A DNA stretch of 64,000 nt from an uncultured Candidatus Saccharibacteria bacterium (GCA_964505155.1 CAZDGL010000001.1:1286-65285); one strand, 5' to 3'. Positions 4,272 to 40,190 are shown, counted from the stretch's first letter. Numbers and translations: made by a program. Notes: a model not told the origin generated them from the sequence alone.

Positions 4272-4772
4272 TCACACTAAAGAGTGGTCTGGACAGCAGG
4301 GATCGAACCTGCGATCTGAAGTTTCCAAAACTCCCGGATTACCCCTTTCCCATGCCCAGATATATTCATCTATAATAGGTTGAATTTCTTGTTTATATCG
4401 ACTGTGAACATATTGATGATGTGTTGGACACAATGGCACTAAGTTTTCTGGTCGATTGTCACTATGGTCTTCGTTAACGTGATGTGCGGCAACGATCTTT
4501 TCTTCACCGCATATCAAACACTTTTTTCCATGATAAAAGAAACATGTTGATTGATAACTATCTTGCTTCCAATTACCATGTTTGTCTCCTGTTCGAAAAT
4601 ATGTATTTGAACAAGAATAACTACAAGTTACTGATTCACTTGTAAATTCTTTTGAACAAACAGGACATTTTTTAATTCCTTGACATGCTAACAAATGTCT
4701 GTTTAAAGAATTATTAGCAACTAATTTTCTACATTTCTGGCATTCTATTTTTGGATATTTTCTTGGTGACAT
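4272..4772 (-). CDS. HNH endonuclease (putative homing endonuclease) with N-terminal Cys-rich region
   Basis: HNH motif CLICGEEKIVAAHHVNEDHSDNRPENLVPLCPTHH; the C-terminal 29 codons read through tRNA-Pro; a CATAAATA motif plus an SD-containing hairpin lie upstream (4775..4798). Confidence 0.7.
   Translation of the reverse strand: MSPRKYPKIECQKCRKLVANNSLNRHLLACQGIKKCPVCSKEFTSESVTCSYSCSNTYFRTGDKHGNWKQDSYQSTCFFYHGKKCLICGEEKIVAAHHVNEDHSDNRPENLVPLCPTHHQYVHSRYKQEIQPIIDEYIWAWERGNPGVLETSDRRFDPCCPDHSLV
4285..4359 (-). tRNA. tRNA-Pro (anticodon UGG)
   Basis: Manual cloverleaf: acceptor CTGGGCA/TGTCCAG (one G.U), anticodon stem GGAGT/ACTTC, loop TTTGGAA, T-arm GCAGG-TTCGATC-CCTGC, CCA encoded. Confidence 0.7.
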
Positions 4773-6122: not shown

Positions 6123-6703
6123 TAATGTTTTATACAGTATATAAGATCACCAATAGAGTCAATCAAAAAACATACATAGGAATGCACAAAACTAGTATCA
6201 TCAACGATGATTACATGGGTTCTGGTGAACTTATAAAAAACGCTATTAAGAAATATGGTATAGACAATTTTATCAAAGATGTTCTTTTCATTTATGATAA
6301 TAAAGAAGACATGAAAAATAAAGAAATTGAACTGGTAAACGATGAATACTTAAATAGTGGAATGACTTACAACCTATGTTATGGTGGTCATGGTGGTTCT
6401 AGAAGAAAAGGTGTTATTTTAACTGAAGAGTTAAAAACTAAGATTTCAAAATCCGTAAAGATAGCTATGAACAACCCTACATTAAAAGCTCATCTTTCTA
6501 AAAAAAGACTGGGAAAGAAAGCCAGTATGAAAACTCGACAAAAATCATCTAAGAGTCACAAAACTCTTAGATGGATCTCTGATATTGAAAATCAAAAATC
6601 CATCTTTGTTCATTTTCACGAAGCAGAAAAATTAATCTCTACTGGAAAGTGGATTCAAGGAAGAAAATATGGATTTGATCCAAGACATGGAAAGGATTCA
6701 TGA
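6086..6703 (+). CDS. GIY-YIG homing endonuclease (Seg-like) with NUMOD3 repeats
   Basis: N-terminus MFYTVYKITNRVNQKTYIGMHKT...YMGSG (GIY-YIG); C-terminal NUMOD3-like repeats TEELKTKISKSVK / HLSKKRLGKKASMK. Confidence 0.75.
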   Translation: MSYLLYNKKGKPLMFYTVYKITNRVNQKTYIGMHKTSIINDDYMGSGELIKNAIKKYGIDNFIKDVLFIYDNKEDMKNKEIELVNDEYLNSGMTYNLCYGGHGGSRRKGVILTEELKTKISKSVKIAMNNPTLKAHLSKKRLGKKASMKTRQKSSKSHKTLRWISDIENQKSIFVHFHEAEKLISTGKWIQGRKYGFDPRHGKDS

Positions 6704-6717
6704 TCCGTACTTTCCCA

Positions 6718-6951
6718 TCACATAAAAGAAGCCAACGAAGGCAACACAGCAGCAAAAGAATTCATTTCGTTCTCATTATCAAACTGATAGAGGATCTCTC
6801 GTTGAAAGTTCTCAATACCATGTTTAGCAATAGCACGTTGAAGATGTTTTCCTGAACCCAAGTATCCGTCGTCTAGAATTTCAGTCTGGTGCTTTCCTCG
6901 ATAAACTTTCCTATCTATTAAGTTAGTGGTCTGGTATACAATGTAATGCAT
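6718..6951 (-). pseudogene. truncated GIY-YIG endonuclease (catalytic domain only, 77 aa)
   Basis: The first 60 aa match the 211 and 218 aa paralogs almost exactly (MHYIVYQTTNL...YLGSG...ENFQREILYQFDNE) and then diverge and stop; a convergent GIY-YIG gene lies immediately downstream. Confidence 0.6.
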
Positions 6952-6958
6952 TAAAAAG

Positions 6959-7003
6959 AAATCCCTAGAATCCGTTTACTATTATTTAGGATTCTAGGGA
7001 TTT
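6959..7003 (-). promoter_or_regulatory. 15-bp-stem hairpin with conserved loop CTAAATAATAGTAAAC (late-promoter-like) sequestering the SD
   Basis: aaatccctagaatcc / ggattctagggattt stems; the loop is identical to the 40081..40095 loop; the stem sequence covaries with the paralogous hairpins. Confidence 0.6.
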
Positions 7004-7008
7004 CAATG

Positions 7009-7093
7009 CGGAAGGTTAGGGAGTCGAACCCTAGCTACCTTGCGGTAGGCTTCAGCTTTCCAAGCTGGCACATTACCACTCTGTCAACCTTCC
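7009..7093 (-). tRNA. tRNA-Ser (anticodon GGA), type II
   Basis: Acceptor GGAAGGT/ACCTTCC, 3-bp D-stem, anticodon loop TTGGAAA, long variable arm CTACC-GCAA-GGTAG, T-loop TTCGACT; 27:43 C.A mismatch. Confidence 0.6.
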
Positions 7094-7098
7094 AAAAA

Positions 7099-7186
7099 TG
7101 GAGGAGCATTCGGGGATCGAACCCGCGCTACCTTTCGGTAGACCTTCGCTTAGCAAGCGAGTACATTACCACTCTGTCAATACTCC
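7099..7186 (-). tRNA. tRNA-Ser (anticodon GCU), type II
   Basis: Acceptor GGAGTAT/ATGCTCC, anticodon stem CTCGC/GCGAG, loop TTGCTAA, long variable arm, T-arm GCGGG-TTCGATC-CCCGC, CCA encoded. Confidence 0.7.
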
Positions 7187-7197
7187 AGTGAAGATAT

Positions 7198-7599
7198 TTA
7201 TGCTCCTTCAGCAACCAACAGCGAAGTTTCTGGATTCAGAATCATTCGGGAAAGCTGAACCACAGTAGTCTGACTCTCAGTTGCGAATCCATAGAGTGCA
7301 AGAACTTCCATGAGTGCGGTTGCGAAAGCCTCCGTCGTGGCATCAAAGGCATCGGTGACCAGCTTCGAATCCGGATCCGAATTGCGGATTTCGTCACCAT
7401 CGTAATCCAGCGTCGACAGCTTGTTGAAGACGATAGCATTGCGGATCTGAGTATTCAGATCGCTATCTGGATTGATAATATCCAGAAGGAAGTTGGTATA
7501 AATTCGATCCAGTAGGATGTTCGCACCCTTCTTCACAGTTTCGTGCTGCTCAACCGGAAGGTTTTCGGTCAGTGCTGCAATCAAAGTTTCACGGCTCAT
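7198..7599 (-). CDS. hypothetical protein
   Basis: 133 aa ORF. Confidence 0.4.
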   Translation of the reverse strand: MSRETLIAALTENLPVEQHETVKKGANILLDRIYTNFLLDIINPDSDLNTQIRNAIVFNKLSTLDYDGDEIRNSDPDSKLVTDAFDATTEAFATALMEVLALYGFATESQTTVVQLSRMILNPETSLLVAEGA

Positions 7600-7916
7600 A
7601 TAATCTCTCCATAAACGTTGGTTAGGTGTTTCAAGTGGTGTTTCCCCACCGAAACTGATTCGGTAGGACTTAGACGTCCCTGCAGAATAGGAGCGTCATC
7701 CCATTCCCTGTAGTAGTTGGGAGTGAACAATTCATATCCCGATTTCTCGAAGTCTGCAAATGGTTTGATAGCATCCGCAACACGCAAGAATTGCATGTGA
7801 CTTTCACGCAACATACCGACAAGCTCATAGAGGACGACCTTCTTAGTATCGTCCCCTACATCATGAATAATCGATTCCACGAAATCGGCAAACAGAGGGA
7901 GCTTATTCACATTCAT
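7596..7916 (-). CDS. hypothetical protein
   Basis: 106 aa ORF overlapping the previous stop. Confidence 0.4.
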   Translation of the reverse strand: MNVNKLPLFADFVESIIHDVGDDTKKVVLYELVGMLRESHMQFLRVADAIKPFADFEKSGYELFTPNYYREWDDAPILQGRLSPTESVSVGKHHLKHLTNVYGEII

Positions 7917-8058
7917 GCATCGACGTCCTTGATTGAGGGATTAAACGGAACTTCCATAAGCTCGTTTAGAATCTCTCTATCAAGCTTTCTCAATTAATAG
8001 TCGATCTGTCTGCGAAGATCAAGCAGGAAATCAATAAGCTCGGATCTTTCTTTGTCGT

Positions 8059-8457
8059 TCACTCGTCACTCTCCAAAAAGTATATGAAGTTCTTGTCTGC
8101 GGTGAAATTCGTAATGACGATGTTATAATACCCTTCGTCGGGTACGTCAAACGAAATCTCCTGCACACATCCCTTTTCTAAGGCACCTGCAATAGGTTCA
8201 CTCTCGTCTTCCTCGGTGGACGGATCGTCCATAGGAGCAACAAAAATTCCGAAATTTACTTCATCTTTTGCTTCACAATCTGGTGAAACTAGCGTAAGTG
8301 TGCTATGACTGGAAGGATCGAACTTGTTCAGGAATACAAGAGAAGAATTGGCAAACAACTTCCCACTGACGAACATCGGATATCCCTGCGGTGCAGCGAA
8401 TGCACCGACAGTCAACATACCAACGATAGCTGAACTTAGAACCAGATTTTTAAGCAT
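8059..8457 (-). CDS. secreted or periplasmic protein with signal peptide
   Basis: An internal Met gives MLKNLVLSSAIVGMLTVGAFA (signal-peptide-like) then an acidic mature region; the track ORF extends to 8511. Confidence 0.45.
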   Translation of the reverse strand: MLKNLVLSSAIVGMLTVGAFAAPQGYPMFVSGKLFANSSLVFLNKFDPSSHSTLTLVSPDCEAKDEVNFGIFVAPMDDPSTEEDESEPIAGALEKGCVQEISFDVPDEGYYNIVITNFTADKNFIYFLESDE

Positions 8458-8462
8458 TGTAG

Positions 8463-8657
8463 TCACTCCTTTTTGTTGTAGAACAATTCCGCTCCTGCGA
8501 CAAGCATACATCCGCTTGCTGAGCCAACGATAATAACTGCGAGAATGAATTGGAGGATAGTTTCCATATTTTCCATTACTCCTGATGCGAACGAGGCAAG
8601 ACCAAGCGAAGCAGTAGCAAAGATGAAAGCACGCATAACAAAAAACCTCTCGTTCAT
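8463..8657 (-). CDS. small hydrophobic membrane protein
   Basis: 64 aa ORF with two hydrophobic segments. Confidence 0.3.
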   Translation of the reverse strand: MNERFFVMRAFIFATASLGLASFASGVMENMETILQFILAVIIVGSASGCMLVAGAELFYNKKE

Positions 8658-8791
8658 TTCTGAAGAGAGGTTAGCTCATTTCTACAAAAGAGTCAAGTGG
8701 TTTTTAAAAGAAAAGTGGTGCTTCTAGAAGAAATCGAATCTTCGACTATCCCTTACCAAAGGATTATTTTACCATTAGAACTATAGAAGCA

Positions 8792-8867
8792 TGGTGCTTT
8801 CAATCAGGTTCGAACTGATGGCCTTTGCCGTGTCGAGGCAACGCTCTCCCAACTGAGCTATGAAAGC
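8792..8867 (-). tRNA. tRNA-Val (anticodon GAC)
   Basis: Acceptor GCTTTCA/TGAAAGC, D-arm GCTC-AGTTGGGA-GAGC, anticodon stem TTGCC/GGCAA, loop TCGACAC (C33), T-arm ATCAG-TTCGAAC-CTGAT, CCA encoded. Confidence 0.55.
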
Positions 8868-9214
8868 AAATTTAAGTGATCGGTAACCCCAATAAATTCA
8901 TCCCGATAATCTGGACCGATTGCTGCGCAGGTTAGAGTCGGTACACCATCGAATACGGTTCGACCTTCGTCCACAATAATAGCGGTAATCAATCCACGGT
9001 ACTTTGCTACATCAACAACCTGAAGCAACTCTTCCTCAGATTTGACTTCCAACACTACCTTAGTGAAGGAATCATTATAAAGCCACTCTAAAACGCGAGT
9101 ATCATCCATATTTTCGACGGTTGCCTTCAGTGAAGCATGTGCTCCCTGAGAAACCATCTTTCCTGCTCCCATACCAATATCAGTACGCATCAGGATAATC
9201 TGCTTTAGGTCCAT
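8858..9214 (-). CDS. peptidyl-tRNA hydrolase, PTH2 family
   Basis: IILMRTDIGMGAGKMVSQGAHASLKA matches the PTH2 signature (R.DL.MGKGK..AQ..HA); ATG at 9212..9214 with a GGAAGG SD; the track uses an upstream TTG. Confidence 0.75.
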   Translation of the reverse strand: MDLKQIILMRTDIGMGAGKMVSQGAHASLKATVENMDDTRVLEWLYNDSFTKVVLEVKSEEELLQVVDVAKYRGLITAIIVDEGRTVFDGVPTLTCAAIGPDYRDEFIGVTDHLNLLS

Positions 9215-9231
9215 GACCAACCTTCCAAAAA

Positions 9232-9305
9232 TGGTACCCAGTGAGGGAATCGAACCCCCGATGTCGCGGTGTAAACGCGATGCTTTCCCATTTAGCTAAC
9301 CGGGC
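9232..9305 (-). tRNA. tRNA-Val (anticodon UAC)
   Basis: Acceptor GCCCGGT/ACTGGGT (two G.U), anticodon stem TCGCG/CGCGA, loop TTTACAC, T-arm GGGGG-TTCGATT-CCCTC, CCA encoded. Confidence 0.65.
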
Positions 9306-9444
9306 ATAATAAAATCCGCTGCAGTGAAATAAGGCCGGTGCTTATTCCATACTATAACGAGTATGTCTGTTTAGCGACCGTGTCAAGGCATCGTTATATA
9401 CCAAGGATCCAAACGGCACAGAACTACAACTATCTGGTGGAGCT

Positions 9445-10080
9445 TCATCCCTTTCGGAACGAAACCCCTAACTTTCGACCTTTATACCATCCTTCTGGTA
9501 TCTGGTCAAGCTTTTTTATCTTACGATTCTCTGTTCCATTAGTGATCCACATAGATCCGAACTGAGAATTTTTCTCACCTTGTTGGTGAAGGGAATTAGC
9601 TTCACCTATTTTACGCTTATGATCATCTGAAAGATGTGACCCTGTAGAATCATATCCTAAATTTTTTTTAGCCCTATCAGCTAAAGCTTGTCTATGTGCA
9701 GAATTTGATTGTACTTTTAGTTTTGTGGCAATAATACTCTTGGCACGTTCTTCTTCAGTAAATCCAAATCTACGAGGTGTTAAATTATTTTGGTTGATAT
9801 ACCCAAATCCACCTTTACCACCGGGACAAATATTATAAGTGTTTGATAAATTACAAAAATCTTCAGTTACCAATTCAGCTTCCTTAGAGATCATATCGGC
9901 TTCATTATCGAATTGGTAGAGAATCTCTCGCTGGAAGTTCTCAATACCATATTTTTTAATAGCACGTCTGATCTGATTCCCAGACCCTAAGTACCTATCA
10001 TTCAGATCAGAAGTCTGATGCTTACCACGATAGATTTTACCATTAATCAGGTTTGTAGTCTGGTAGACGATATAATGCAT
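9445..10080 (-). CDS. GIY-YIG homing endonuclease (Seg-like), paralog family member
   Basis: MHYIVYQTTNLINGKIYRGKHQT...YLGSG motif; 211 aa; about 70% identical at the N-terminus to 39404..40060 and 6718..6951. Confidence 0.8.
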   Translation of the reverse strand: MHYIVYQTTNLINGKIYRGKHQTSDLNDRYLGSGNQIRRAIKKYGIENFQREILYQFDNEADMISKEAELVTEDFCNLSNTYNICPGGKGGFGYINQNNLTPRRFGFTEEERAKSIIATKLKVQSNSAHRQALADRAKKNLGYDSTGSHLSDDHKRKIGEANSLHQQGEKNSQFGSMWITNGTENRKIKKLDQIPEGWYKGRKLGVSFRKG

Positions 10081-10085
10081 AAAAG

Positions 10086-10132
10086 GGAAACTCCAGAACG
10101 CTTTTGCTATTATTTAGCGTTCTGGAGTTTCC
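10086..10132 (-). promoter_or_regulatory. 16-bp-stem hairpin with CTAAATAATAGCAAAA loop upstream of the GIY-YIG gene
   Basis: ggaaactccagaacgc / gcgttctggagtttcc; loop TTTTGCTATTATTTA; the SD lies in the 3' stem half. Confidence 0.6.
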
Positions 10133-10136
10133 GAAG

Positions 10137-10208
10137 TGGACTGATGGGGGATCGAACCCCAACTACCGCATTGCAAGTGCAGTGTGCTCCCATTATCACT
10201 ATCAGCCC
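10137..10208 (-). tRNA. tRNA-Ala (anticodon UGC)
   Basis: Acceptor GGGCTGA/TCAGTCC (G3.U70), anticodon stem CTGCA/TGCGG, loop CTTGCAA, T-arm TGGGG-TTCGATC-CCCCA; CCA not encoded. Confidence 0.7.
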
Positions 10209-10223
10209 AATAACTAACGAATT

Positions 10224-10297
10224 TGGTACCTGAGCCGCGAATCGAACGCGAGTGGACGGTTCCACAGACCGTCGCTTTACCACTAAGCTACTCAGGC
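10224..10297 (-). tRNA. tRNA-His (anticodon GUG), alphaproteobacterial type (no G-1, G1:U72, A73)
   Basis: Acceptor GCCTGAG/CTCAGGT with G1.U72, discriminator A, position -1 is U; anticodon stem ACGGT/ACCGT, loop CTGTGGA; T-arm TCGCG-TTCGATT-CGCGG; CCA encoded. Confidence 0.7.
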
Positions 10298-10327
10298 ATA
10301 ATCTCTATTACTTATATATGACACTTT

Positions 10328-10582
10328 TCACTCAGTGTCAACGGAAATCTTTTCGAGTGTGGATTTTCTTTTCACTTTGAAGAGTGGGGTAAGTTTGTAG
10401 ACGTAAACCTCATCCTCTTCAAGAAAATCGTCAAGATCGATATTGACGGGATCCTTCACGTCAAAAACGTACATATCCATATTTGATCCATCAGATCCAT
10501 CCAGATCAACCAGAGGATCGATGCCGGTCATTACCACATAGAAATCCTTGATTGAAGGACTTGGTTTCTTCTTAGCTGCCAT
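10328..10582 (-). CDS. hypothetical acidic protein
   Basis: Internal start MAAKKKPSPS with an AAGGA SD; the track's upstream start would lie inside the terminator hairpin. Confidence 0.4.
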   Translation of the reverse strand: MAAKKKPSPSIKDFYVVMTGIDPLVDLDGSDGSNMDMYVFDVKDPVNIDLDDFLEEDEVYVYKLTPLFKVKRKSTLEKISVDTE

Positions 10583-10593
10583 TTCTTTTTCCT

Positions 10594-10625
10594 TTGAAAA
10601 ATGGAGGAGCATTGTCTGCTCCTCC
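10594..10625 (-). terminator. rho-independent terminator (minus strand)
   Basis: GGAGGAGCA-gacaa-TGCTCCTCC followed by ATTTTTC, directly after the SPFH gene stop. Confidence 0.6.
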
Positions 10626-10642
10626 ATGTTTATAGTTTTATC

Positions 10643-11533
10643 TCACTGAGGAGTAGGTGTCAGATTCAGAAATGGTACTGCTGAACCCGGAATCATTTGT
10701 GCAGGAAGCTTTCCGTCCCACCGCTCAGCTTGCGTGAGTCGGATTAGATCCGGACTCTGCTTGAGAGCATCACCCTTGGCACGAATAGCATCAGCGTCTG
10801 CTTCACCTCGGATCCGAACAGCTTCTGCTGAGGCTTTGGCTTCAGCTAGTTGTGAGTCAGCACGTGCGTTTGCTTGCGTCACGGCAATCTCAGCATTGAT
10901 CTTTTCACGTTCGGCATTCTGACGGATCTTCTGAACTTCAACCTCGGCCATCATTCGGGCTTCGATAGACTGCTCATACTCGTCAGAAAAGTCGATATTC
11001 TCAATCTGAACCGAGATAATACTAACTGGACCTTCAACTGCAGCAATGATTGCTTGTTCAATATCAGTATTCAACTTAGCTCGATCCTGAACAATCGTTA
11101 CCGCATTATATCGACCGAACACGTTCTTGGTCTCTTCGTAAACCTTTGGATCAACCAAACGAAGGATCATATTGGATTCAGACCCATACTGTCGATAAAC
11201 CTCGTCTACAAAATCCGGTGCGATAACATAGTTCAATGAAAGTCGGACAGTTGCAGTCTGCTGGTCCTTAGAATATGCTGCAAGTCCACCAGTATACGTT
11301 CCGTCAGAATTCTGTGTTGCGTATGTTCGCACATTATCCCGAACCGAGATATCAACCACGTCATCTAGGAATGGAAGCTTGAATCCCAACCCCGGATTTG
11401 CTACACCCTGAAAAGCACCATTTCGAAGAATAACACCTCGATCACCCTCGTTTACTGTATAGAAACTTCCAAAAAACGTTGAAAGTCCTACGAGAGCAAC
11501 AATAAGAGCTAGTACACCTATTACATATTTCAC
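10643..11533 (-). CDS. SPFH / band-7 (HflK/C, prohibitin-like) membrane protein
   Basis: N-terminal TM then YTVNEGDRGVILRNGAFQGVANPGLGFKLPF...VRDNVRTYATQ (SPFH core) and an Ala/Glu-rich coiled-coil C-terminus; GTG start overlaps the upstream micro-ORF stop. Confidence 0.75.
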   Translation of the reverse strand: MKYVIGVLALIVALVGLSTFFGSFYTVNEGDRGVILRNGAFQGVANPGLGFKLPFLDDVVDISVRDNVRTYATQNSDGTYTGGLAAYSKDQQTATVRLSLNYVIAPDFVDEVYRQYGSESNMILRLVDPKVYEETKNVFGRYNAVTIVQDRAKLNTDIEQAIIAAVEGPVSIISVQIENIDFSDEYEQSIEARMMAEVEVQKIRQNAEREKINAEIAVTQANARADSQLAEAKASAEAVRIRGEADADAIRAKGDALKQSPDLIRLTQAERWDGKLPAQMIPGSAVPFLNLTPTPQ

Positions 11534-11646
11534 TTAGTTTCTCCTTTAGAAGTCTTGAAACGAATATTATCAATACACCACCATATTCCCATCCACAAGA
11601 CGAATGCGATTACGATGATGCCTACTGCTAGAAATAGCTTAGTCAT
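11530..11646 (-). CDS. small membrane protein (38 aa), translationally coupled
   Basis: MTKLFLAVGIIVIAFVLWMGIWWCIDNIRFKTSKGETK; ATGA and GTGA overlaps with the neighbouring genes. Confidence 0.3.
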   Translation of the reverse strand: MTKLFLAVGIIVIAFVLWMGIWWCIDNIRFKTSKGETK

Positions 11647-11725
11647 CTTTTGCGTCCCTTCCACACTGAAGAATAATCCAAATCATTGTTCCAATCAAAG
11701 CCACTGAGGCAAGAAAATAAAGCAT
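11639..11725 (-). CDS. small membrane protein (28 aa), translationally coupled
   Basis: MLYFLASVALIGTMIWIILQCGRDAKDD; its start overlaps the phosphatase stop (TAATG). Confidence 0.3.
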   Translation of the reverse strand: MLYFLASVALIGTMIWIILQCGRDAKDD

Positions 11726-12444
11726 TATGCCATCCACTCCGCATTTGTTTTAAATTTATCCATGAAGTTAAACTTCGAATCAATCTGTACAGTATTGTAC
11801 ATCATCAACTCAAACTCTTCATCTATCACAAGTGCGGACAATAGTCCACCGAAAACGCATGACGTATCGAGATTGATACGATTCTTTCTCCATGTGATAT
11901 CATCCTGTGGAGTATGTCCATGAACAACCTTTTTATCAAATGGATGAGTGTAGTCTAAAAACTTATCGCGGATCCAAAGTGAATCATTCCAGTTCTGGTC
12001 ATTCAGGGAATACGAAGGATTGACTCCAGCATGAACGAAGAAGTGCTTTCTGGTTTCATAATACTGACGAGTATTAGTCAGAAACTTCCAATGTCCTGCA
12101 GGAAGATAATCATACCCTATTGTGGTATAATCAAACCCATAAGACTTGTAGCACTCGGGATAATACTGATAATGACCAATAGATCCTTCGCGCATGGCTT
12201 CCATAAACATATCTTCGTGATTACCACGTAGGAAAACGCATTCTTGACGCATACCATACGCAATAAGTTTATCGATCACTCCCTTGGAATCAGGACCACG
12301 ATCAATGTAATCACCCAAAAAGATGCGGACGTGTTCTGGAAATTGCTTATCCAGAGCATCCAGCATTTCGTTCAGTTCGTTCAGACATCCGTGAATGTCT
12401 CCGATAGCGATATATTTACTCACTAGATTTCTCCGCACATGCAA
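11725..12444 (-). CDS. Ser/Thr protein phosphatase, PPP / metallophosphoesterase family (lambda-PPase-like)
   Basis: GDIHGC, GDYIDRGPDS and GNHE motifs in order. Confidence 0.85.
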   Translation of the reverse strand: MHVRRNLVSKYIAIGDIHGCLNELNEMLDALDKQFPEHVRIFLGDYIDRGPDSKGVIDKLIAYGMRQECVFLRGNHEDMFMEAMREGSIGHYQYYPECYKSYGFDYTTIGYDYLPAGHWKFLTNTRQYYETRKHFFVHAGVNPSYSLNDQNWNDSLWIRDKFLDYTHPFDKKVVHGHTPQDDITWRKNRINLDTSCVFGGLLSALVIDEEFELMMYNTVQIDSKFNFMDKFKTNAEWMA

Positions 12445-12486
12445 AAATATTAAAAAGATAAATAGCTCTATAAGGAGCTATCAAAA

Positions 12487-13131
12487 ATGTACTGTACATA
12501 TCTTACCATTTATTCAGGAAACTTATTGCCACCATTTTATATCGGGTATACTTCTATTTCAAGAATAGAATCTGGGTATAACGGAACAGTAACTTCACAA
12601 CGTTACGGAACAATATGGAAATCAGAACGAAAAGTCAATAAACATCTGTTCAAAACCATCATATTAAAACAATTCCATAACAGAAAAGAAGCATTATTAG
12701 CAGAATGTCAATTACATGAAAAATTAAAAGTTGATAAAAATCCTTTATATATCAACCAATCTTGTCAAAAATCAGACGGATTTACTTGTATAGGACACTC
12801 AAAGGAATCACGTAAAAGAATGTCAGAAACCAGAAAAGGTCGTAAAGGTCCAAATCTCGGTCGAGTATTAACTGAAGAATGGAAAGAAAATATCTCCAAA
12901 GGAAATAAAGGAAAACCAAAATCTGAAACTACAAAGAAAAAAATGTCGGAATCATTTAAAACTAGAAGATGGTGGACTAACGGTATTATTGATAAATTTA
13001 CGTCAGAATACCTCGGTGAAGGATGGAGACGTGGCATGAGAAAAAATCCTAATAGAAAAGGATTTCTTCCCGGTAATCAATATCGATTCAATCCAAAAAA
13101 CCATGATATTCCTGCCAAGCATGATAACTGA
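12487..13131 (+). CDS. GIY-YIG homing endonuclease (Seg-like) with NUMOD3 repeats
   Basis: YCTYLTIYSGNLLPPFYIGYT...; repeats SKESRKRMSETRKGRKG / TEEWKENISKGNKGK; preceded by GATAAATAG plus an SD-containing hairpin. Confidence 0.7.
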   Translation: MYCTYLTIYSGNLLPPFYIGYTSISRIESGYNGTVTSQRYGTIWKSERKVNKHLFKTIILKQFHNRKEALLAECQLHEKLKVDKNPLYINQSCQKSDGFTCIGHSKESRKRMSETRKGRKGPNLGRVLTEEWKENISKGNKGKPKSETTKKKMSESFKTRRWWTNGIIDKFTSEYLGEGWRRGMRKNPNRKGFLPGNQYRFNPKNHDIPAKHDN

Positions 13132-13936
13132 TGTATTCAACAACTCTATGTTTGTCCATTGCGTATAATCCTGCGCAGGCCAGTGAGTTAAGTTCTACGA
13201 TTTTTGGACCGTTCTCCGTCAATGCGACATCGCAGATATAGACAGAATCCGGTTGCCAGATATGGTTAGCCATCTTCCATGCCATATCCATACAGTCCTT
13301 ATCCCAATCATGTCGGATGTCAAGGACATTATCCCATCGGTATTCGGATCCATCGACCACTTCACGATTGACAATCAAAAACCGAAATTCGGCTTTGATG
13401 TTCTTTGCTGAGGAAATCAGGCATAGAGTCTCATCCTGAACACTGGTCAATTGCATGGAGGACGATAGCTCGTCTGCCACATTATCAATAGTGATAACAA
13501 ATCCAGTGAAAGTCTTGAACCCGGATACCGGACGAATGAACACGCAATCTGATTTGAAAATATCAAATACTCGAAGTGGATTATCTCTCACTTCTTTGAA
13601 AGGAAGAATGATGTAGTCCGCATTGAGTAGAGAATTCTTAGGAAGATTTGGGTAATAGAAATTGCAATTCATGTTCTGACCGATGCCGTAGGCACCCGGT
13701 GTGAAACCCATCTTGCATTTGGATACGTATCCATGTGTGCCATAAAGCACAACAATGTCTGCAGAAGTATATGGACCGTAATCCTGAACCTCTGCAAACG
13801 GAATGTATTTAGTTTCATGAAGGGAGCATCCGTGAGCTTTGATAGCTCCTAGAAGATCTCCTACCGTGGATCTAGAATCCAGAATATGAGTGTCAACTGC
13901 CCACGCTACTTGGTTTGGTGTATACCGCATTTTCAT
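13088..13936 (-). CDS. ATP-grasp-fold protein (putative peptide or amine ligase)
   Basis: C-terminal VYICDVALTENGPKIVELNSLACAG resembles the ATP-grasp E.N..PG signature; 282 aa. Confidence 0.45.
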   Translation of the reverse strand: MKMRYTPNQVAWAVDTHILDSRSTVGDLLGAIKAHGCSLHETKYIPFAEVQDYGPYTSADIVVLYGTHGYVSKCKMGFTPGAYGIGQNMNCNFYYPNLPKNSLLNADYIILPFKEVRDNPLRVFDIFKSDCVFIRPVSGFKTFTGFVITIDNVADELSSSMQLTSVQDETLCLISSAKNIKAEFRFLIVNREVVDGSEYRWDNVLDIRHDWDKDCMDMAWKMANHIWQPDSVYICDVALTENGPKIVELNSLACAGLYAMDKHRVVEYISYHAWQEYHGFLD

Positions 13937-14192
13937 ATTCTTCCATAGCTAATCTGGCTTCGTATGCACTAACGTGTACGTCAATTTCCATTTCTAGATC
14001 GAGTCCACATCGGTATCCTGTTTCATAATGGTTCCATACCAACCACGATCCTACGAATTTTCGGACTTGTTCTTTTCTCAAAACAAATCCGAAAATCTTC
14101 CACTCAGGAATCCGAAAGGTGACCAGTTTATCTCGATAAGCTCTGGTTCTATCTGCATCGAGATCTAGATAATGAACATCGATTAGTTCCAT
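13893..14192 (-). CDS. hypothetical protein
   Basis: 99 aa ORF. Confidence 0.35.
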   Translation of the reverse strand: MELIDVHYLDLDADRTRAYRDKLVTFRIPEWKIFGFVLRKEQVRKFVGSWLVWNHYETGYRCGLDLEMEIDVHVSAYEARLAMEEYENAVYTKPSSVGS

Positions 14193-14686
14193 TAGAAATC
14201 ACCATGATAGATGAGAGTATCTACCCGAACCGACTCAAGTGAGTCAAAGTATCCTACCCATGCACCACAGTAGATGGTCTGACCATCGAAATCGAAAGAC
14301 CACTTATCGATGTCCTGCTTCATGGAACGATAGCGAGTCTCGATCTCCGTCTTGAGACGATAGGCATTTTCAAGATTATCAAAGACCATGATAAACTCAG
14401 GGTTCCCGGTAGAATGACCGAAAGAGTCACCCGTCGAATAAGTCAACCACACAAGAATGTATGGCTTCCCAACTTCGAGATCGATATTCTTGTGGGTAGC
14501 TACCAGAGTACCACCTCTTCCAGAAGTGATGTATTCGAGATCCACCGTTCCGTGGTCGGATCTCCATTCACCCCACTCTTCACCAGAGTGCCAATATGAA
14601 CCACCATGAAGGTGATACTTCACATAATAGAGCTTCTCGTCTGGCTTCTGAATCTTCTTCTTGCCCATCAGATTCTCACTTCTCAA
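14192..14686 (-). CDS. hypothetical protein
   Basis: 164 aa ORF. Confidence 0.35.
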   Translation of the reverse strand: MRSENLMGKKKIQKPDEKLYYVKYHLHGGSYWHSGEEWGEWRSDHGTVDLEYITSGRGGTLVATHKNIDLEVGKPYILVWLTYSTGDSFGHSTGNPEFIMVFDNLENAYRLKTEIETRYRSMKQDIDKWSFDFDGQTIYCGAWVGYFDSLESVRVDTLIYHGDF

Positions 14687-15050
14687 ACTTGGATTTCAGC
14701 TTCAGATACGTTGCATACTCTTCCTGCTTCTGTTTGTCAAGACGAGCCTTATCTTCTTTCTTCTTTTGTTTTCGAGCCTCAGCATCCCGGTTCGATTCAA
14801 TAGCTATCCGAAGCTCATACTCATAATCGTTCTCTAAACGATATCCTTCCAGATAGCATTTAAGCTCTGCTGGATCATCATAATATCCAGTTTCAACATC
14901 AGCAGCAAAAATCATATCTTCAGTATGAATGTCCCATTCTGTAGATTTTGATTGAATGAGATCGATTAGCTCGGACGCATTGAGATAGACACATCCTGTC
15001 TTACCAAGGTCGTGCCTAAAATGCTTGTTTTCTCTTTTTTGATTTACCAT
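14676..15050 (-). CDS. hypothetical protein with basic, charged C-terminal tail
   Basis: 124 aa ORF. Confidence 0.35.
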   Translation of the reverse strand: MVNQKRENKHFRHDLGKTGCVYLNASELIDLIQSKSTEWDIHTEDMIFAADVETGYYDDPAELKCYLEGYRLENDYEYELRIAIESNRDAEARKQKKKEDKARLDKQKQEEYATYLKLKSKFEK

Positions 15051-15075
15051 TTGAGATCATCATAAATGAGGAGAA

Positions 15076-15151
15076 TGGTGCCCCTAGCAGGCTTCGAACC
15101 CACGACCTTCTACTTACAAGGTAGCTGCTCTACCAACTGAGCTATAGAGGC
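15076..15151 (-). tRNA. tRNA-Thr (anticodon UGU)
   Basis: Acceptor GCCTCTA/TAGGGGC, D-arm GCTC-AGTTGGTA-GAGC, anticodon loop CTTGTAA (27:43 G.A mismatch), T-loop TTCGAAG, CCA encoded. Confidence 0.7.
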
Positions 15152-15161
15152 ATTATTTGGT

Positions 15162-15425
15162 TTAAACGTATACCGTGATTGTCTTTGAAACAGGAAAGAC
15201 TTCCTTGACTTCAATTTCATCCGGTTCATGTTCGAAAGGTTGTTCGTCTTGATATTCCGTAGCACCCACCGAATAGGTAGTCTTATAGAATTTGCCTTCA
15301 TGTTCGAAAACAACTTCATGCTTGACAGACCACCGATCAGTATCGATAATCTCGTCTGAGATCAACTCAAGATCCACGTCACCCCAACAGACTAATTCCT
15401 GTAGATCATTCTTTTTGAATAACAT
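15162..15425 (-). CDS. hypothetical protein
   Basis: 87 aa ORF. Confidence 0.35.
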   Translation of the reverse strand: MLFKKNDLQELVCWGDVDLELISDEIIDTDRWSVKHEVVFEHEGKFYKTTYSVGATEYQDEQPFEHEPDEIEVKEVFPVSKTITVYV

Positions 15426-15450
15426 TCAATTACCTTTCATAATATGAAAA

Positions 15451-15526
15451 TGGAGGAAGCGGTGGGAATCGAACCCACTTAGCGACTGTTTTGCAGACAG
15501 CGACGTATCCAACCCGTCCCGCAACC
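15451..15526 (-). tRNA. tRNA-Cys (anticodon GCA), acceptor stem with two U.U mismatches
   Basis: Anticodon stem GCTGT/ACAGT, loop CTGCAAA, T-arm GTGGG-TTCGATT-CCCAC, discriminator U plus CCA; acceptor GGTTGCG/CGCTTCC pairs 5 of 7. Confidence 0.55.
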
Positions 15527-15658
15527 TTAAAACTTTATGCAAATGCCGGTGCACATCCTGCTAGGATGAGAAAAGCAATCACGACAGCAAGAACAGCGAT
15601 AATCCGGTCCTTGTTATCGAAGCTAGACCAAGTCGTCTTGGCCCAATTAATTAGTCCA

Positions 15659-15889
15659 TCAAACATCAGAATATCCTTTTTCAAATTCCATTATGTGGTC
15701 TATGATATTTTCATAGGGAGTCTCGGACATCTTGCGAGCAAGTTTAACCAGAGGTTCCCTAGAATGCATTTTCACTCGAATAAAATCTGGTGGTGTATAA
15801 AGGATTTCTCCAGTCTCCAGATATTGAATAACGAGACGCTTATTGTATTTCTTCACAATCGCTGTGACATACAGTCTCGGCCATTCCAT
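15659..15889 (-). CDS. hypothetical protein
   Basis: 76 aa ORF. Confidence 0.35.
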   Translation of the reverse strand: MEWPRLYVTAIVKKYNKRLVIQYLETGEILYTPPDFIRVKMHSREPLVKLARKMSETPYENIIDHIMEFEKGYSDV

Positions 15890-15908
15890 AACAAACGTCC
15901 TTTAAAAA

Positions 15909-15991
15909 TGGAGAGTGCAGAGGGATTCGAACCCACCTTTTCAATTCCGACTACGGATAACTGCTTAGAAGGCAGAACCGATTATGCACCC
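15909..15991 (-). ncRNA. aberrant tRNA-like RNA (canonical acceptor and T-arm plus CCA, non-canonical middle); anticodon-like loop CTTCTAA (UCU)
   Basis: Acceptor GGGTGCA/TGCACTC and T-arm GTGGG-TTCGAAT-CCCTC plus CCA are canonical, but the 46 nt between them cannot form both a D-arm and an anticodon arm of standard size. Confidence 0.4.
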
Positions 15992-16026
15992 ATATGATCT
16001 ATTTATAACCCATTCCATTCCACAAG

Positions 16027-16470
16027 TCAATTATTTTTTTCGGGAACTTCGTATTCAGGAATTTCCAGATCGACCGTAGCGGATTCACCTTCTTGCATTT
16101 GAATCATCAGATCAGGTTCCTGACCTTCGCTTGATTCTTCCAACTGCTTATGTCTGGACAGAATAAGCTTTTCAGCTAGATCGTCCGTATACGGAGTGTG
16201 GCAATAGATTGGCTTTACAGAATTCAACCAAAGATAAATGACTGGTTCATCAAGCTTGAATTCCAAAATCTCACGTCTGATTGATAGATCACATTCCACA
16301 CTCTGACCAGCAGTCATTTTGGACAAATGTAGAATTAATGGTGCTGCGGCAATCATGAAGAACACCGCAAAGACCTTTACCAAGCTTCTGGCATCAGACC
16401 ACAGAATGATGCCAGCAAGCGCGCAGACAACCAGAGTCAGTACAATCCATCCGATATAAAATTCGATCAT
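16027..16470 (-). CDS. membrane protein (2 TM) with acidic C-terminus
   Basis: Hydrophobic segments IGWIVLTLVVCALAGIILW and VFAVFFMIAAAPLILHL. Confidence 0.45.
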   Translation of the reverse strand: MIEFYIGWIVLTLVVCALAGIILWSDARSLVKVFAVFFMIAAAPLILHLSKMTAGQSVECDLSIRREILEFKLDEPVIYLWLNSVKPIYCHTPYTDDLAEKLILSRHKQLEESSEGQEPDLMIQMQEGESATVDLEIPEYEVPEKNN

Positions 16471-16471
16471 T

Positions 16472-17026
16472 TCACTGACCCTTCTTGATTAGAATGTCAA
16501 CCGGAATATCGAGAAACTCACCGAGTTTTCCGTTCTCATCAATACTGAAATTCCACAATGTCACCTGATCCATTGGATTAAGGATGACTTCTTTTTCACC
16601 AACCGATACGACACCACCATTCACCCGCATTTCCAGCTTGGCAGTTACTGGAACCGGATCCAAGCACCTGTAGCAATGCAGATTGATGGCATAATCACCC
16701 TCAGGCTTACCGCGCGAGAATGCATTTTCGTAATTTAAAGGAAGGACATCACCATAGACACCAGTATCGTCTCGGAGCAAATTCCAAACGCTACCAGATT
16801 TTCTGGAAAATCCGATTGCCATATCTCTGGGAGACTTGAGCCACAGATCGACGTCATTGTTTCCTTCTGGCCACATGACAGTAACGATCAAGTCACCGTT
16901 CATGGTATTGCGGTTTTCTTCTGCTATCGGCACAATAGCTGCCACAGCATACATGAAAAACGCAAAAATAACAGCAATTGTACAATATAGAACGTCTCTA
17001 AAAAGAGTCTGTACTGCGTCCTTCAT
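16472..17026 (-). CDS. single-pass membrane protein, possible ExbD/TolR-like partner
   Basis: N-terminal TM (LYCTIAVIFAFFMYAVAAIV) with a preceding Asp, then a soluble domain; adjacent to a MotA/TolQ-like gene. Confidence 0.3.
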   Translation of the reverse strand: MKDAVQTLFRDVLYCTIAVIFAFFMYAVAAIVPIAEENRNTMNGDLIVTVMWPEGNNDVDLWLKSPRDMAIGFSRKSGSVWNLLRDDTGVYGDVLPLNYENAFSRGKPEGDYAINLHCYRCLDPVPVTAKLEMRVNGGVVSVGEKEVILNPMDQVTLWNFSIDENGKLGEFLDIPVDILIKKGQ

Positions 17027-31342: not shown

Positions 31343-32074
31343 ATGCAGCAATATACACCATACACTTATTTATTAGGATGGTCAACTCCTAAAATATATT
31401 ATTATGGTGTTCGATACTCAAAAAAGAGTAAATGTTTATATTTATCAGGATGTCATCCTGATGATTTATGGAATACTTATTTTACTTCTTCTGAATATGT
31501 AAAAAATACGTATTTATTATACGGAAATCCTGATATAATTCAGATTAGAAAAACTTTCAATACTGCAAAAGAAGCTTTAAATTGGGAAAAGAAAGTTTTA
31601 ACTAGAATGAAATTACATCAGCGACCCGATTTTTTGAATAAATGTGCTGGTGGTAGTATTTTTAATGATGAAGATGTTAGAAGAAAAGTGTCGTTAGCTC
31701 TTAAAGGAAAACCATTTTCTCAAGAACATAAAGATAACATTCGAAAATCAAAACAAAACATTTCTCCTGAAATTCGTGCTAATATGAGCCGAGGACAAAG
31801 ATCCAAATCACCTCCAACAATAGAAACAAGAATAAAAAGATCTAAAAGTATGAAAAAACTTCATTGGTATAATAATGGCAATGAAAGTAAGAGATTACTC
31901 GTATGTCCTGAAGGATGGACCCAAGGTCGACTTACTTTCACTAAAACCACTACTTATATCAAATGTTCAAACTGTGAAAGAAATATATCTAAGTCAAATT
32001 TTCGGAAACATTCGACTTTTTGCCTACGGTATACTTTGACACCAGAAGATAGTCCTTCTTCTCGGAAGCCTTGA
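31343..32074 (+). CDS. GIY-YIG homing endonuclease (Seg-like) with NUMOD3 repeats
   Basis: ...KIYYYGVRYSKKS...; repeats SQEHKDNIRKSKQ / SPEIRANMSRGQRSKS; an exact TATAAATA lies 23 nt upstream (31313..31320). Confidence 0.65.
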   Translation: MQQYTPYTYLLGWSTPKIYYYGVRYSKKSKCLYLSGCHPDDLWNTYFTSSEYVKNTYLLYGNPDIIQIRKTFNTAKEALNWEKKVLTRMKLHQRPDFLNKCAGGSIFNDEDVRRKVSLALKGKPFSQEHKDNIRKSKQNISPEIRANMSRGQRSKSPPTIETRIKRSKSMKKLHWYNNGNESKRLLVCPEGWTQGRLTFTKTTTYIKCSNCERNISKSNFRKHSTFCLRYTLTPEDSPSSRKP

Positions 32075-33567: not shown

Positions 33568-33780
33568 TCAATCAACAATTTCCCAATCGTCTGAAAGTAT
33601 ATCAGCTTGATTAGCTAACCAACCCGGTTGATATTTACCTTGAGCAGTAAACATTACTATATAAGGTTCGTACTTTTCGTACTCAGTTTCTAAATATAGA
33701 TACATGTTTTTGCCGTTCCATCCAGAACGTCTAACAAAATTTCCATTTTTTAGTTCTTCAATTGCTTGTCCAAAATTCAT
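33568..33780 (-). CDS. hypothetical protein
   Basis: 70 aa; its ATG overlaps the HNH stop (ATGA). Confidence 0.35.
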   Translation of the reverse strand: MNFGQAIEELKNGNFVRRSGWNGKNMYLYLETEYEKYEPYIVMFTAQGKYQPGWLANQADILSDDWEIVD

Positions 33781-34349
33781 TTAAACTCCAACTCTGCCAT
33801 CAATTCGGTTAGACATGCAGCATCAACATGTCCATATTTAATTCTGTTTTCTTTCCACTCTAACATTTGTAAATTATCCTTACTAGCAAGTATTTCAGGT
33901 TGAATAGAATTATTCCATCCATATATAATAGAGATTTTATGATCTAATTGATATCCACCTTCTACACCAGATAATGTTCTAGGATAATTATTAGGATTAA
34001 TTTCATTCATATGTTTAATATATGTTCGTTCTGTCAACACTCTTACTTTTGATAGATAGCTTTTAAATTTACGATTTCTTCTATCTGGATTATAAGATGG
34101 ATGGTTTGAGCCACTTCTATTTTTACCATACCAAGGATTATTTTCACCTTTCCATCTATCTGAAGATATATAATTACCTTGTCGTTTTTGTCCAGTTTGA
34201 GATTTCTGGTATTTTGCTATACTATCATGAGAATCTGCAGTTAATCCTTTATTCCAAGGAGATTTTCCAGTATTATCTGGAAGTATACCTCTAGCAACTC
34301 TTTTTTTAGCAGATTCCGACATTTTGCGTCGGGTTTCGTCTGAAATCAT
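33777..34349 (-). CDS. HNH-family homing endonuclease with N-terminal NUMOD3 repeat; the last 14 codons duplicate the gp44 C-terminus
   Basis: SDETRRKMSESAKKR (NUMOD3); C-terminal LDHKISIIYGWNN...NLQML (HNH-like); ends ...AACLTELMAELEFK, as does gp44. Confidence 0.7.
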   Translation of the reverse strand: MISDETRRKMSESAKKRVARGILPDNTGKSPWNKGLTADSHDSIAKYQKSQTGQKRQGNYISSDRWKGENNPWYGKNRSGSNHPSYNPDRRNRKFKSYLSKVRVLTERTYIKHMNEINPNNYPRTLSGVEGGYQLDHKISIIYGWNNSIQPEILASKDNLQMLEWKENRIKYGHVDAACLTELMAELEFK

Positions 34350-39330: not shown

Positions 39331-39356
39331 AGGAGCCGAAAGGCTCCTTAATTCTT
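39331..39356 (+). terminator. rho-independent terminator (GNRA tetraloop hairpin)
   Basis: AGGAGCC-GAAA-GGCTCCT then TAATTCTT; near-identical to the hairpin at 40726. Confidence 0.6.
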
Positions 39357-39403
39357 GGTGCGGACTAGCGGTAACGATCCGCTTTCTACTCGTTGGCAAC
39401 GAG

Positions 39404-40060
39404 TCATAATTCCTTTATACGAAGCCCGCTAAATTTTCGACCTTTATACCAACCTTCTGGTATCTGGTCAAGTTTATTTATCTTTCGGTTCCTAGTTCCA
39501 TCAGTTATCCACATAGTTCCGAAAGCAGGATTTTTCTGACCGTTTCTATCAACTTTTTGTTGAGCCTCAGATATTTTTCGTTTAATCTCGTCAGATTGAG
39601 TTTTACCTAGTTGAGAATAAACAAAATTTGATGACGGTATATGTTTGATACCTTTTTCTTTTTTTGCTAAGGCACCTTTAATTCCAAGTTCTCTTAGTTT
39701 TTCTTTTGAAAATTTACCTATAGAACTGTCATATCCTTTACGAACATATTCGTTTTTCAAATTTGACGAATTGATGTATTTAAACCCTCCACCGAACCCA
39801 CCTACACAAATATTGTAGGTGTTTGATAGTCCACACCAATCTTCATCTACTAATTCAGCTTCTTTGAGAAGCATATCTTGTTCGGTATCAAAACGATATA
39901 AGATCTCTTTATTAAAATTTTCACGTCCGTATTTCTTTACGGCATGCTTCAAATGAGTACCAGATCCAAGATATCCATCGTCTAAATTCTTAGTTTGATG
40001 GATGCCTCGATATACTTTATCGTTTAAGAGATTGGTAGTTTGGTAGACGATGTAGTGCAT
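39404..40060 (-). CDS. GIY-YIG homing endonuclease (Seg-like), paralog family member
   Basis: MHYIVYQTTNLLNDKVYRGIHQT...YLGSG; 218 aa. Confidence 0.8.
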   Translation of the reverse strand: MHYIVYQTTNLLNDKVYRGIHQTKNLDDGYLGSGTHLKHAVKKYGRENFNKEILYRFDTEQDMLLKEAELVDEDWCGLSNTYNICVGGFGGGFKYINSSNLKNEYVRKGYDSSIGKFSKEKLRELGIKGALAKKEKGIKHIPSSNFVYSQLGKTQSDEIKRKISEAQQKVDRNGQKNPAFGTMWITDGTRNRKINKLDQIPEGWYKGRKFSGLRIKEL

Positions 40061-40065
40061 TTAAG

Positions 40066-40110
40066 GGAGTCCTGATTACCGTTTACTATTATTTAGGTAA
40101 TCAGGACTCC
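40066..40110 (-). promoter_or_regulatory. 15-bp-stem hairpin with conserved CTAAATAATAGTAAAC loop upstream of the GIY-YIG gene
   Basis: ggagtcctgattacc / ggtaatcaggactcc; the SD AGGA lies in the 3' stem 10 nt from the ATG. Confidence 0.6.
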
Positions 40111-40115
40111 AAGGG

Positions 40116-40190
40116 AGCGTCCAGTCGGATTCGAACCGACACTTACTGGTTGGAAGCCAGTCGTGCTTAGCCGTTAAACACTATAGAAGC
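40116..40190 (-). tRNA. tRNA-Gly (anticodon UCC)
   Basis: Anticodon stem ACTGG/CCAGT, loop CTTCCAA, T-arm GTCGG-TTCGAAT-CCGAC, discriminator U; acceptor with one U.C mismatch; CCA not encoded. Confidence 0.65.

Follow-up and report, generated by a model that had tools for sequence, protein, structure and literature searches.

Why do several endonuclease genes of one family stand directly behind transfer RNA (tRNA) genes in a single phage genome? The question is raised by a stretch of DNA of 64,000 nucleotides (nt) recorded as an uncultured Candidatus Saccharibacteria bacterium (GCA_964505155.1 CAZDGL010000001.1:1286-65285), here called the window and numbered from its first letter. A sequence-only reading of the window had drawn attention to three GIY-YIG endonuclease genes whose products all begin with MHYIVYQTTNL and had proposed that tRNA genes or their 3' flanks are the targets of these enzymes. 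The tRNA-adjacent pattern is real but mostly already explained, the phenomenon being known from phage T4 SegB (2008) and from a tRNA association published in 2026. The copies are quite probably SegB-type free-standing homing endonuclease cassettes, each consisting of a hairpin with a putative late promoter and a gene for a GIY-YIG nuclease.

Endonuclease genes directly behind tRNA genes

The phage in the window is a distant T4-like virus of an uncultivated lineage. Homologues of gp23, gp20, gp44, gp46, and UvsW were found in it, and its DNA polymerase (gp43) was at best 42 to 45% identical to any among GenBank phages and IMG/VR. Judged by this polymerase identity (no more than 45%), no close genome was present in either collection, and a megablast comparison of the region with GenBank phages gave zero matches. 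The tRNA genes called by ARAGORN in the window number 12, lie on the - strand without exception, and have 12 different anticodons. Three of them, which the Rfam tRNA model also recognised, are each followed on the same strand by one of three paralogous GIY-YIG open reading frames (ORFs), all of which start with MHYIVYQTTNL:

10136..10208, - strand: tRNA-Ala(TGC), called by ARAGORN and by the Rfam tRNA model at 52 bits; 3' end ...GTCCA-C followed by TTCGG, CCA not encoded
9445..10080, - strand: full-length SegB-like GIY-YIG gene, 211 amino acids, behind tRNA-Ala (ORF, Pfam, PHROG, and SegB alignment)
7008..7093, - strand: tRNA-Ser(GGA), called by ARAGORN and Rfam; CCA not encoded; 97% identical to the CCA-bearing allele of the relative L072 (see below)
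6718..6951, - strand: truncated SegB-like ORF, 77 amino acids, behind tRNA-Ser(GGA)
40114..40190, - strand: tRNA-Gly(TCC), called by ARAGORN and Rfam; 3' end ...GGACGC-T-CC followed by CTTGG, CCA incomplete
39404..40060, - strand: full-length SegB-like GIY-YIG gene, 218 amino acids, with a weak NUMOD3 match, behind tRNA-Gly(TCC)

The placement of the three genes directly downstream of tRNA-Ala, tRNA-Ser(GGA), and tRNA-Gly(TCC) was thereby confirmed. At each of the three loci the spacer is built of 3 nt, a perfect hairpin of 15 to 17 base pairs (bp), and 5 to 6 nt before the ATG. The gap of only 5 to 6 nt that had been reported holds between hairpin and ATG and not between tRNA and ATG, where the distance is 55, 56, and 53 nt at the Ala, Ser, and Gly loci, respectively. 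All three - strand members of the family occupy first-gene-after-tRNA slots, of which there are about 8 among approximately 90 - strand genes; the hypergeometric p of about 5e-4 shows that the tRNA-adjacent arrangement in the window is not due to chance. The same arrangement was found beyond the window. In IMG/VR, 17 of 17 non-redundant full-length homologues (41 to 51% identity) begin 20 to 83 nt, mostly 55 to 65 nt, past a same-strand tRNA, which is a Gln, Thr, Gly, Ala, Asn, Pro, Leu, Ser, or Met tRNA (at least nine isotypes), and among cultured phages five of six homologues lie directly 3' of a same-strand tRNA.

Kinship with T4 SegB

The protein encoded at 9445..10080 aligned end to end with T4 SegB at 39% identity (residues 1-204 versus 1-219, E 3e-45). 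The alignment takes in the C-terminal KNSQFG.MWI...IPEGW.KGRK region, and the YxxY...YRG, RRA, EAELV, and TYN positions align as well. When both full-length copies were compared to a T4 set of SegA to SegF and I-TevII, with SegG and I-TevI outside the set, SegB was the best match (137 and 132 bits); SegE reached 110 and 97 bits, and SegD, SegC, SegA, and SegF also scored behind SegB for both. PHROG 314, annotated as homing endonuclease and also holding T4 SegB, matched the Ala copy at E 2.6e-41 and the Gly copy at E 1.5e-37. Pfam matches were weaker: against the SegE_GIY-YIG model the Ala copy scored 25.9 bits (cut-off 25) and the Gly copy 21 bits, below the cut-off, and the generic GIY-YIG model gave 15 bits, also below its cut-off. 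The truncated copy is without the C-terminal half of the GIY-YIG domain. A PDB sequence search gave zero matches, and nothing of use was gained from a tblastn search with T4 SegB.

The recognition site of SegB, 27 bp long, lies at the 3' end of tRNA genes and combines GGTTCRANTCC, the T-arm motif, with a degenerate central part and, in many cases, CCAR. The main cut is made directly 3' of CCAR; the enzyme still cuts sites that lack CCA, but less efficiently and at a displaced position (Brok-Volchanskaya et al. 2008, PMC2330249). In crosses of T4 with T2L, SegB brings inheritance of the T4 tRNA region close to 100%, which is homing, and the ribosome-binding site and start codon of segB are hidden by a hairpin (PMC2330249). 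The order in T4 is tRNA-Ile, 41 nt, segB, 5 nt, tRNA-Arg. The genes described here resemble segB in the whole-length homology of their products, C-terminal region included, in lying 41 to 56 nt past a same-strand tRNA without CCA and ending at or near the next tRNA, and in having a hairpin that hides the ribosome-binding site or start codon. They differ in that the window proteins are only 39% identical to SegB and their activity is a predicted one, in that the window phage genome has at least four copies whereas T4 has one segB, and in their hairpin, which has 15 to 17 bp and a conserved late-promoter-like loop, whereas that of T4 segB has approximately 18 bp, is interrupted, and has no mapped promoter nearby. 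The homology to a known cutter of tRNA 3' ends supports the view that these endonucleases would be aimed at tRNA genes or their 3' flanks; the sequence-only reading had in essence arrived independently at the published SegB model.

According to a 2026 Nat Commun paper (PMC13096335), SegB homologues lie within 1 kilobase (kb) of tRNA genes in 296 phage genomes without isotype preference. The association seen here likewise shows no isotype preference; there it was published at a resolution of +/-1 kb.

The junction lies in the encoded CCA

The cassettes begin inside the encoded CCA of the tRNA, after C74 or, at tRNA-Gly, after C75. In most loci the junction reads tRNA positions 1-73, C, and then A(T/C)AGAG or ATTGAA. 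In the window, CCA was encoded in none of the three cassette-adjacent tRNAs versus all nine others, and at the IMG/VR loci in 1 of 17 adjacent versus 180 of 202 non-adjacent tRNAs (pooled, 1/20 versus 189/211; Fisher p 1.4e-15). The tRNA-Ile next to T4 segB likewise has no encoded CCA. The junction falls where the cut of SegB has been mapped. We read it as the footprint of insertion and, because SegB cuts sites without CCA less well and displaced, as a likely source of partial self-protection.

These observations bear on the explanation that the endonucleases simply accumulate in tRNA clusters, which are dispensable and tolerate insertions, and are not aimed at tRNA genes. Such passive accumulation is suggested by the other endonuclease genes in or near the cluster (HNH 4272..4772, GIY-YIG 6125..6703 on the + strand, and two HNH genes of the relative L072) and by the homologue of Pseudoalteromonas phage XG4, which lies 460 nt from the nearest upstream tRNA. 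It is nevertheless highly improbable: more than 20 independent loci, with tRNAs of at least nine isotypes, have the junction at tRNA position 74-75, constant to the nucleotide, the cassette invariably shares the strand of the tRNA, the loss of CCA is confined to the adjacent tRNA, and T4 SegB demonstrably cuts the 3' ends of tRNA genes (PMC2330249).

We give about even chances to a more general rule, by which a fixed two-part cassette (a late promoter in a hairpin plus a SegB-like gene) always inserts into the CCA that tRNA genes encode and thereby deletes it, so that self-cleavage would be blunted and the neighbouring tRNA would need CCA added post-transcriptionally. The CCA-junction rule, the CCA loss, the empty sites in L072, the covarying hairpin with its promoter-like loop, and the copy number were not found stated in the literature searched, which is no proof that they are unpublished; in the accessible portion of PMC13096335, a strand and junction rule (positions 74-76), CCA loss, and a promoter-in-hairpin module were not found stated. 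No phage CCA-adding enzyme was found among the ten large ORFs scanned, and the Rfam model detected no tRNA remnants at E<=1 flanking the cassettes or upstream of the + strand copy.

The same junction words were also seen in IMG/VR after non-adjacent tRNAs lacking CCA: C|ATAGAATGCA, CC|CTTGGGAACC, and C|ATTGTGG (L005 1..908, L006 4215..4932, and L012 121..259). Two gene-sized gaps of 640 to 830 nt and one gap of 66 nt follow these tRNAs, which suggests further cassettes and a possible solo hairpin, respectively.

A close relative with empty sites

Comparison with related phages lacking the genes had been proposed as a check on the sequence-only reading. We found one such relative, L072, a 10-kb Logan contig, through its 96% identical peptidyl-tRNA hydrolase. 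It is syntenic with window 16680..7008 at 74 to 95% nucleotide identity and agrees with it in its nine tRNA species and their order. L072 is without the cassette at two of the three sites, tRNA-Ala and tRNA-Ser(GGA), and at these sites the homology breaks at tRNA position 74. At the Ala site, homology ends exactly at this position (window 10136, L072 5757) and resumes 7 nt before tRNA-Val(TAC). The empty L072 tRNA-Ala allele, GGTTCGATTCC...CCAA, is a perfect SegB-type site, whereas the occupied allele of the window reads GGTTCGATCCC...C|TTCGG, with CCA absent. At the Ser site, L072 differs past the tRNA, where it reads CCA|CACTATGAGG (CCAC), up to the contig end. The two tRNA-Ser(GGA) alleles differ at one loop base and the CCA only, and this near-identity pins the junction right after C74.

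The sequence-only reading had also predicted that the tRNA genes of this phage are reshuffled by homing, for which the support is circumstantial. Between window 7008..15526 and L072, the identities of syntenic tRNAs with the same anticodon were 100% for Val-GAC, 97% for Ser-GGA, 93% for Cys, 84% for Ser-GCT, 77% for Ala, 68% for Val-TAC, 66% for Thr-GGT, 63% for His, and 59% for Thr-TGT, whereas the protein genes flanking them are 74 to 95% identical. The tRNA alleles appear to have been swapped independently of their flanks; a range of 59 to 100% against flanks of 74 to 95% fits the prediction but does not prove remodelling by endonucleases. Two HNH genes of L072 (5958..6813 and 7340..7982), which are absent from the window and lie on the opposite strand, abut or overlap the 3' ends of tRNA-Val(TAC) and tRNA-Thr(GGT). 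L072 also has a complete but different tRNA-Val(TAC), directly preceded by a 31-nt piece from the 5' part of the window-type tRNA-Val(TAC), which suggests that this tRNA was replaced together with an HNH insertion. The most conserved segment of the region is the peptidyl-tRNA hydrolase gene, which is 95% identical to that of L072 at the nucleotide level.

Several copies in one genome

The other two window copies are 56% and 69% identical in protein sequence to the copy at 9445..10080. A fourth full-length paralogue, P0002 (63% identical), is evidently present in the source genome outside the window, which brings the genome to at least four copies; from P0003 on contig L073 of another sample, its context would be tRNA-Glu, the same hairpin, and the gene. 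Exact-protein look-ups with the window copy and P0002 returned no identical record. Overall, the paralogues are 54 to 69% identical, and such low values indicate that they are old or were acquired separately.

The copies could in principle have arisen by duplication or recombination between the tRNA genes of one genome, with no homing between phages. Generic tRNA targets would permit such ectopic spread, and one distinctive loop is common to the four hairpins of the subfamily. We consider this origin quite unlikely: the paralogues share only 54 to 69% identity, P0002 looks nearer by eye to P0003 from the other sample than to its own paralogues, and the close relative L072 is without two of the copies.

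In the truncated copy at 6718..6951, homology to its paralogues stops near codon 65, ahead of the conserved Glu and Asn region, for which reason it is probably inactive. The stop of this - strand ORF lies 15 nt from the end of a gene that converges on it:

6125..6703, + strand: distant GIY-YIG gene abutting the truncated copy, with no preceding tRNA; SegB-like in its N-terminal domain only

At 6125..6951, the 3' two-thirds of one endonuclease gene seem to have given way to another such gene.

A different reason for the presence of these genes would be a domesticated function, compatible with homing, in which the nucleases are kept mainly since breaks in tRNA genes amplify the tRNA array against defences that target tRNAs. 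PMC13096335 reports that breaks induced by SegB of phage T6 amplify tRNA genes and so defeat the Septu defence. At least four copies are spread through the tRNA genes of the window phage genome, and a PTH2-family peptidyl-tRNA hydrolase gene (8858..9220, - strand) stands within the tRNA cluster, with tRNA-Val(TAC) and tRNA-Val(GAC) on either side. In contrast to the amplification described there, no amplified tRNA segments were found in the window, its 12 ARAGORN tRNAs having 12 anticodons; moreover, another endonuclease gene has overrun one copy, itself decayed, and the presence of copies varies between close relatives, both of which are typical of selfish turnover. We consider a mainly domesticated role possible, although doubtful.

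A hairpin with a late-promoter-like loop

Each spacer between tRNA and gene contains a stable hairpin:

10086..10132, - strand: hairpin of the Ala locus, 17-bp stem, 13-nt loop, -29.9 kcal/mol, z -7.7; GGAG in the 3' arm, 10 nt before the ATG
6958..7004, - strand: hairpin of the Ser locus, 16-bp stem, 15-nt loop, -28.9 kcal/mol, z -7.4; AGGGA in the 3' arm
40066..40110, - strand: hairpin of the Gly locus, 15-bp stem, 15-nt loop, -27.9 kcal/mol, z -7.9; AGGA in the 3' arm

The ribosome-binding site (GGAG, AGGGA, or AGGA) lies in the 3' arm at all three loci, and at the Ser locus five extra outer pairs involve the AUG. Covariation was analysed separately for two hairpin subfamilies. Four hairpins, the three of the window and that of L073, have an invariant loop, CTAAATAATAG.AAA.G, and stems that differ: 12 of 16 pairs changed on both sides and 98% of cells are paired in these four sequences, a result that no shuffle or register slide came close to. 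The CTAAATAATAG element occupies 10107..10117 (loop and stem top), 6979..6989 (loop), and 40086..40096 (loop). In the sister subfamily, from IMG/VR, there are 21 predicted pairs, 8 of them compensatory, and the 3' arm covers the AUG and first codons.

At the 5' end of the loop stands CTAAATA. Of 102 crude gene calls, 15 have the motif [A/C]TAAATA 20 to 62 nt upstream in sense and 2 have it in antisense, which was the top score among 15 composition-matched permutations; these sense upstream sites make up 15 of the 29 occurrences in the window, and the head scaffold and tail tube genes are among those that the motif precedes. In relatives, the corresponding position holds TATAAATAG, the canonical T4 late promoter. 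The loop motif is, by these sequence patterns, likely the late promoter of the window phage. Canonical TATAAATA was rejected as the relevant window motif, not being enriched (4 matches versus 2.8 expected). [A/C]TAAATA was also found in a hairpin loop 36 to 40 nt before the start of other genes, at window positions 34389, 30071, and 50101 (- strand), an example being GTCGCAGAT...ATAAATA...ATCTGCGAC before gene 33777..34349; the endonuclease cassettes are thus not alone in having the promoter-in-hairpin device.

In T4, I-TevI, I-TevII, I-TevIII, and genes e, soc, and 49 have a late promoter in or just before a hairpin that sequesters the ribosome-binding site (summarised in part in PMC2330249). 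The arrangement here is similar in that the 3' arm of the hairpin holds the ribosome-binding site, so that only late transcripts would be translatable, and it differs in being deduced from sequence, covariation, and motif statistics and in having CTAAATA in place of TATAAATA. T4-style control of expression is, by this analogy, probable.

The hairpin could instead be chiefly a terminator or an RNA-processing signal of the upstream tRNA transcript and not a translational switch with an internal promoter. U-rich tracts (CCCUUUU, UUUCUUUUU) follow the stems, the hairpin beside the truncated, probably dead copy is still perfect, and tRNAs without encoded CCA require 3' processing. We regard this as unlikely, because the loop CTAAATAATAG.AAA.G is invariant while the stems vary, and a terminator needs no conserved loop. 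In addition, late structural genes are preceded by an element that agrees with the loop motif, relatives have TATAAATAG in place of the loop motif, the 3' arm of the sister subfamily covers the AUG itself, and loops of 13 to 15 nt fall outside terminator-scan criteria.

How the cassettes would spread and be expressed

With the anatomy, homology, junction position, empty sites of L072, stem covariation, and promoter-motif statistics as described above, we infer cleavage specificity, homing, and expression timing by analogy to SegB and T4 late genes, as follows. The enzyme would bind the T-arm sequence GGTTCRANTCC, conserved in almost any tRNA gene, and, where a co-infecting genome is without the cassette, would cut it approximately 20 bp farther downstream, at the end that encodes CCA. 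Recombinational repair off the cassette-bearing genome would then copy the cassette in, directly behind the tRNA. The insertion would replace the encoded CCA, so that the preferred cut site beside the resident copy is removed and the tRNA needs CCA added after transcription. Since the target would be generic to tRNAs, the family could occupy many tRNA genes and several sites per genome. In read-through transcripts from the tRNA operon, the ribosome-binding site would be hidden in the hairpin; late transcripts starting in the loop, 6 to 8 nt past the motif, would be without the 5' arm, which would leave GGAG, AGGGA, or AGGA free and make the transcripts translatable.

Several points weigh against this picture. 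Identity to SegB is only 39% and the margin of SegB over SegE modest (137 versus 110 bits). The empty-site evidence comes from one 10-kb contig that ends 16 nt past tRNA-Ser(GGA), and its Ala site is no simple empty site, as it holds an unrelated 64-codon ORF in a different 200-nt segment. For the Gly site no empty allele was found, a search with the adjacent methyltransferase having given relatives of no more than 59 to 60% identity. The cassette-adjacent tRNAs keep good T-arm motifs, and any self-protection would depend on the loss of CCA alone. As for expression, T4 segB itself has no mapped promoter nearby (PMC2330249), enterobacterial homologues carry sigma-70-like boxes in place of the late promoter, and the spacing between ribosome-binding site and AUG is long, 9 to 10 nt.

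Other endonuclease genes and a doubtful tRNA call

HNH endonucleases sit in the tRNA regions of other phages, for example the F-Tfl enzymes of T5. The interleaving of endonuclease and tRNA genes is a feature shared with such phages, whereas the T5-type HNH enzymes belong to another nuclease family with no homology to the SegB-like copies, and the HNH genes in L072 are convergent. The window has one such gene near its tRNAs:

4272..4772, - strand: HNH endonuclease ORF, its last approximately 29 codons running through tRNA-Pro (4285..4359); ATAAATAG 25 nt upstream of the start

The sequence-only reading had counted this ORF as a fourth example of the pattern. It does read through tRNA-Pro, but it sits 5' of the tRNA and has a different geometry, and it is thus not an instance of the pattern of the SegB-like copies. 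Three more distant GIY-YIG or homing endonuclease gene-like genes on the + strand (6125..6703, 12487..13131, and 31343..32074) are likewise not behind a tRNA 3' end; the placement rule therefore belongs to this subfamily and not to every endonuclease of the phage.

The gene at 12487..13131 (+ strand; endonuclease-like by PHROG 10820 and PHROG 314) is a clean 665-nt insertion (12423..13087) relative to L072, where the flanking genes are contiguous (3480/3481), and it has ATAAATAG 29 nt upstream. The one at 31343..32074 (+ strand), a PHROG 314 homing-endonuclease-like gene away from tRNAs, has TATAAATA 29 nt upstream. A pair of endonuclease VII-like paralogues (50233..50784 and 43397..43867, - strand), with CTAAATA 38 nt upstream of each, may be further mobile nucleases or duplicated gp49-like genes.

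The last 26 nt of the SegB-like gene at 39404..40060 overlap a tRNA-Gly(GCC) call at 39356..39429 (- strand) that was made by ARAGORN only. As the Rfam tRNA model was silent at E<=1, this call was not counted as a flanking tRNA. Its T-arm reads GGATCGTTACC and not GGTTCRANTCC; the tRNA has probably decayed or is of an atypical kind. It is followed by GGAGCC-TTTC-GGCTCC-TTTT, a terminator-like hairpin.

Implications

The copies described here would show an uncultivated, distant T4-like lineage using, in several copies, the strategy of SegB, in which a selfish nuclease has as its target the T-arm and CCA end of tRNA genes, both universally conserved. What is added to that strategy is at the level of nucleotides: a fixed junction in the CCA, the loss of the encoded CCA from cassette-adjacent tRNAs, and a hairpin whose stems covary and whose loop resembles a late promoter. 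If the general rule holds, SegB-type invasion would leave a general footprint, a tRNA lacking CCA with A(T/C)AGAG or ATTGAA directly after it, with which the remodelling of tRNA clusters in T4-like phages could be dated and traced, and the SegB-like family could spread to many tRNA genes in one genome. The findings bear on how phage tRNA clusters are assembled and exchanged, as well as on the role recently proposed for SegB in amplifying tRNA genes against host defences that cleave tRNAs.

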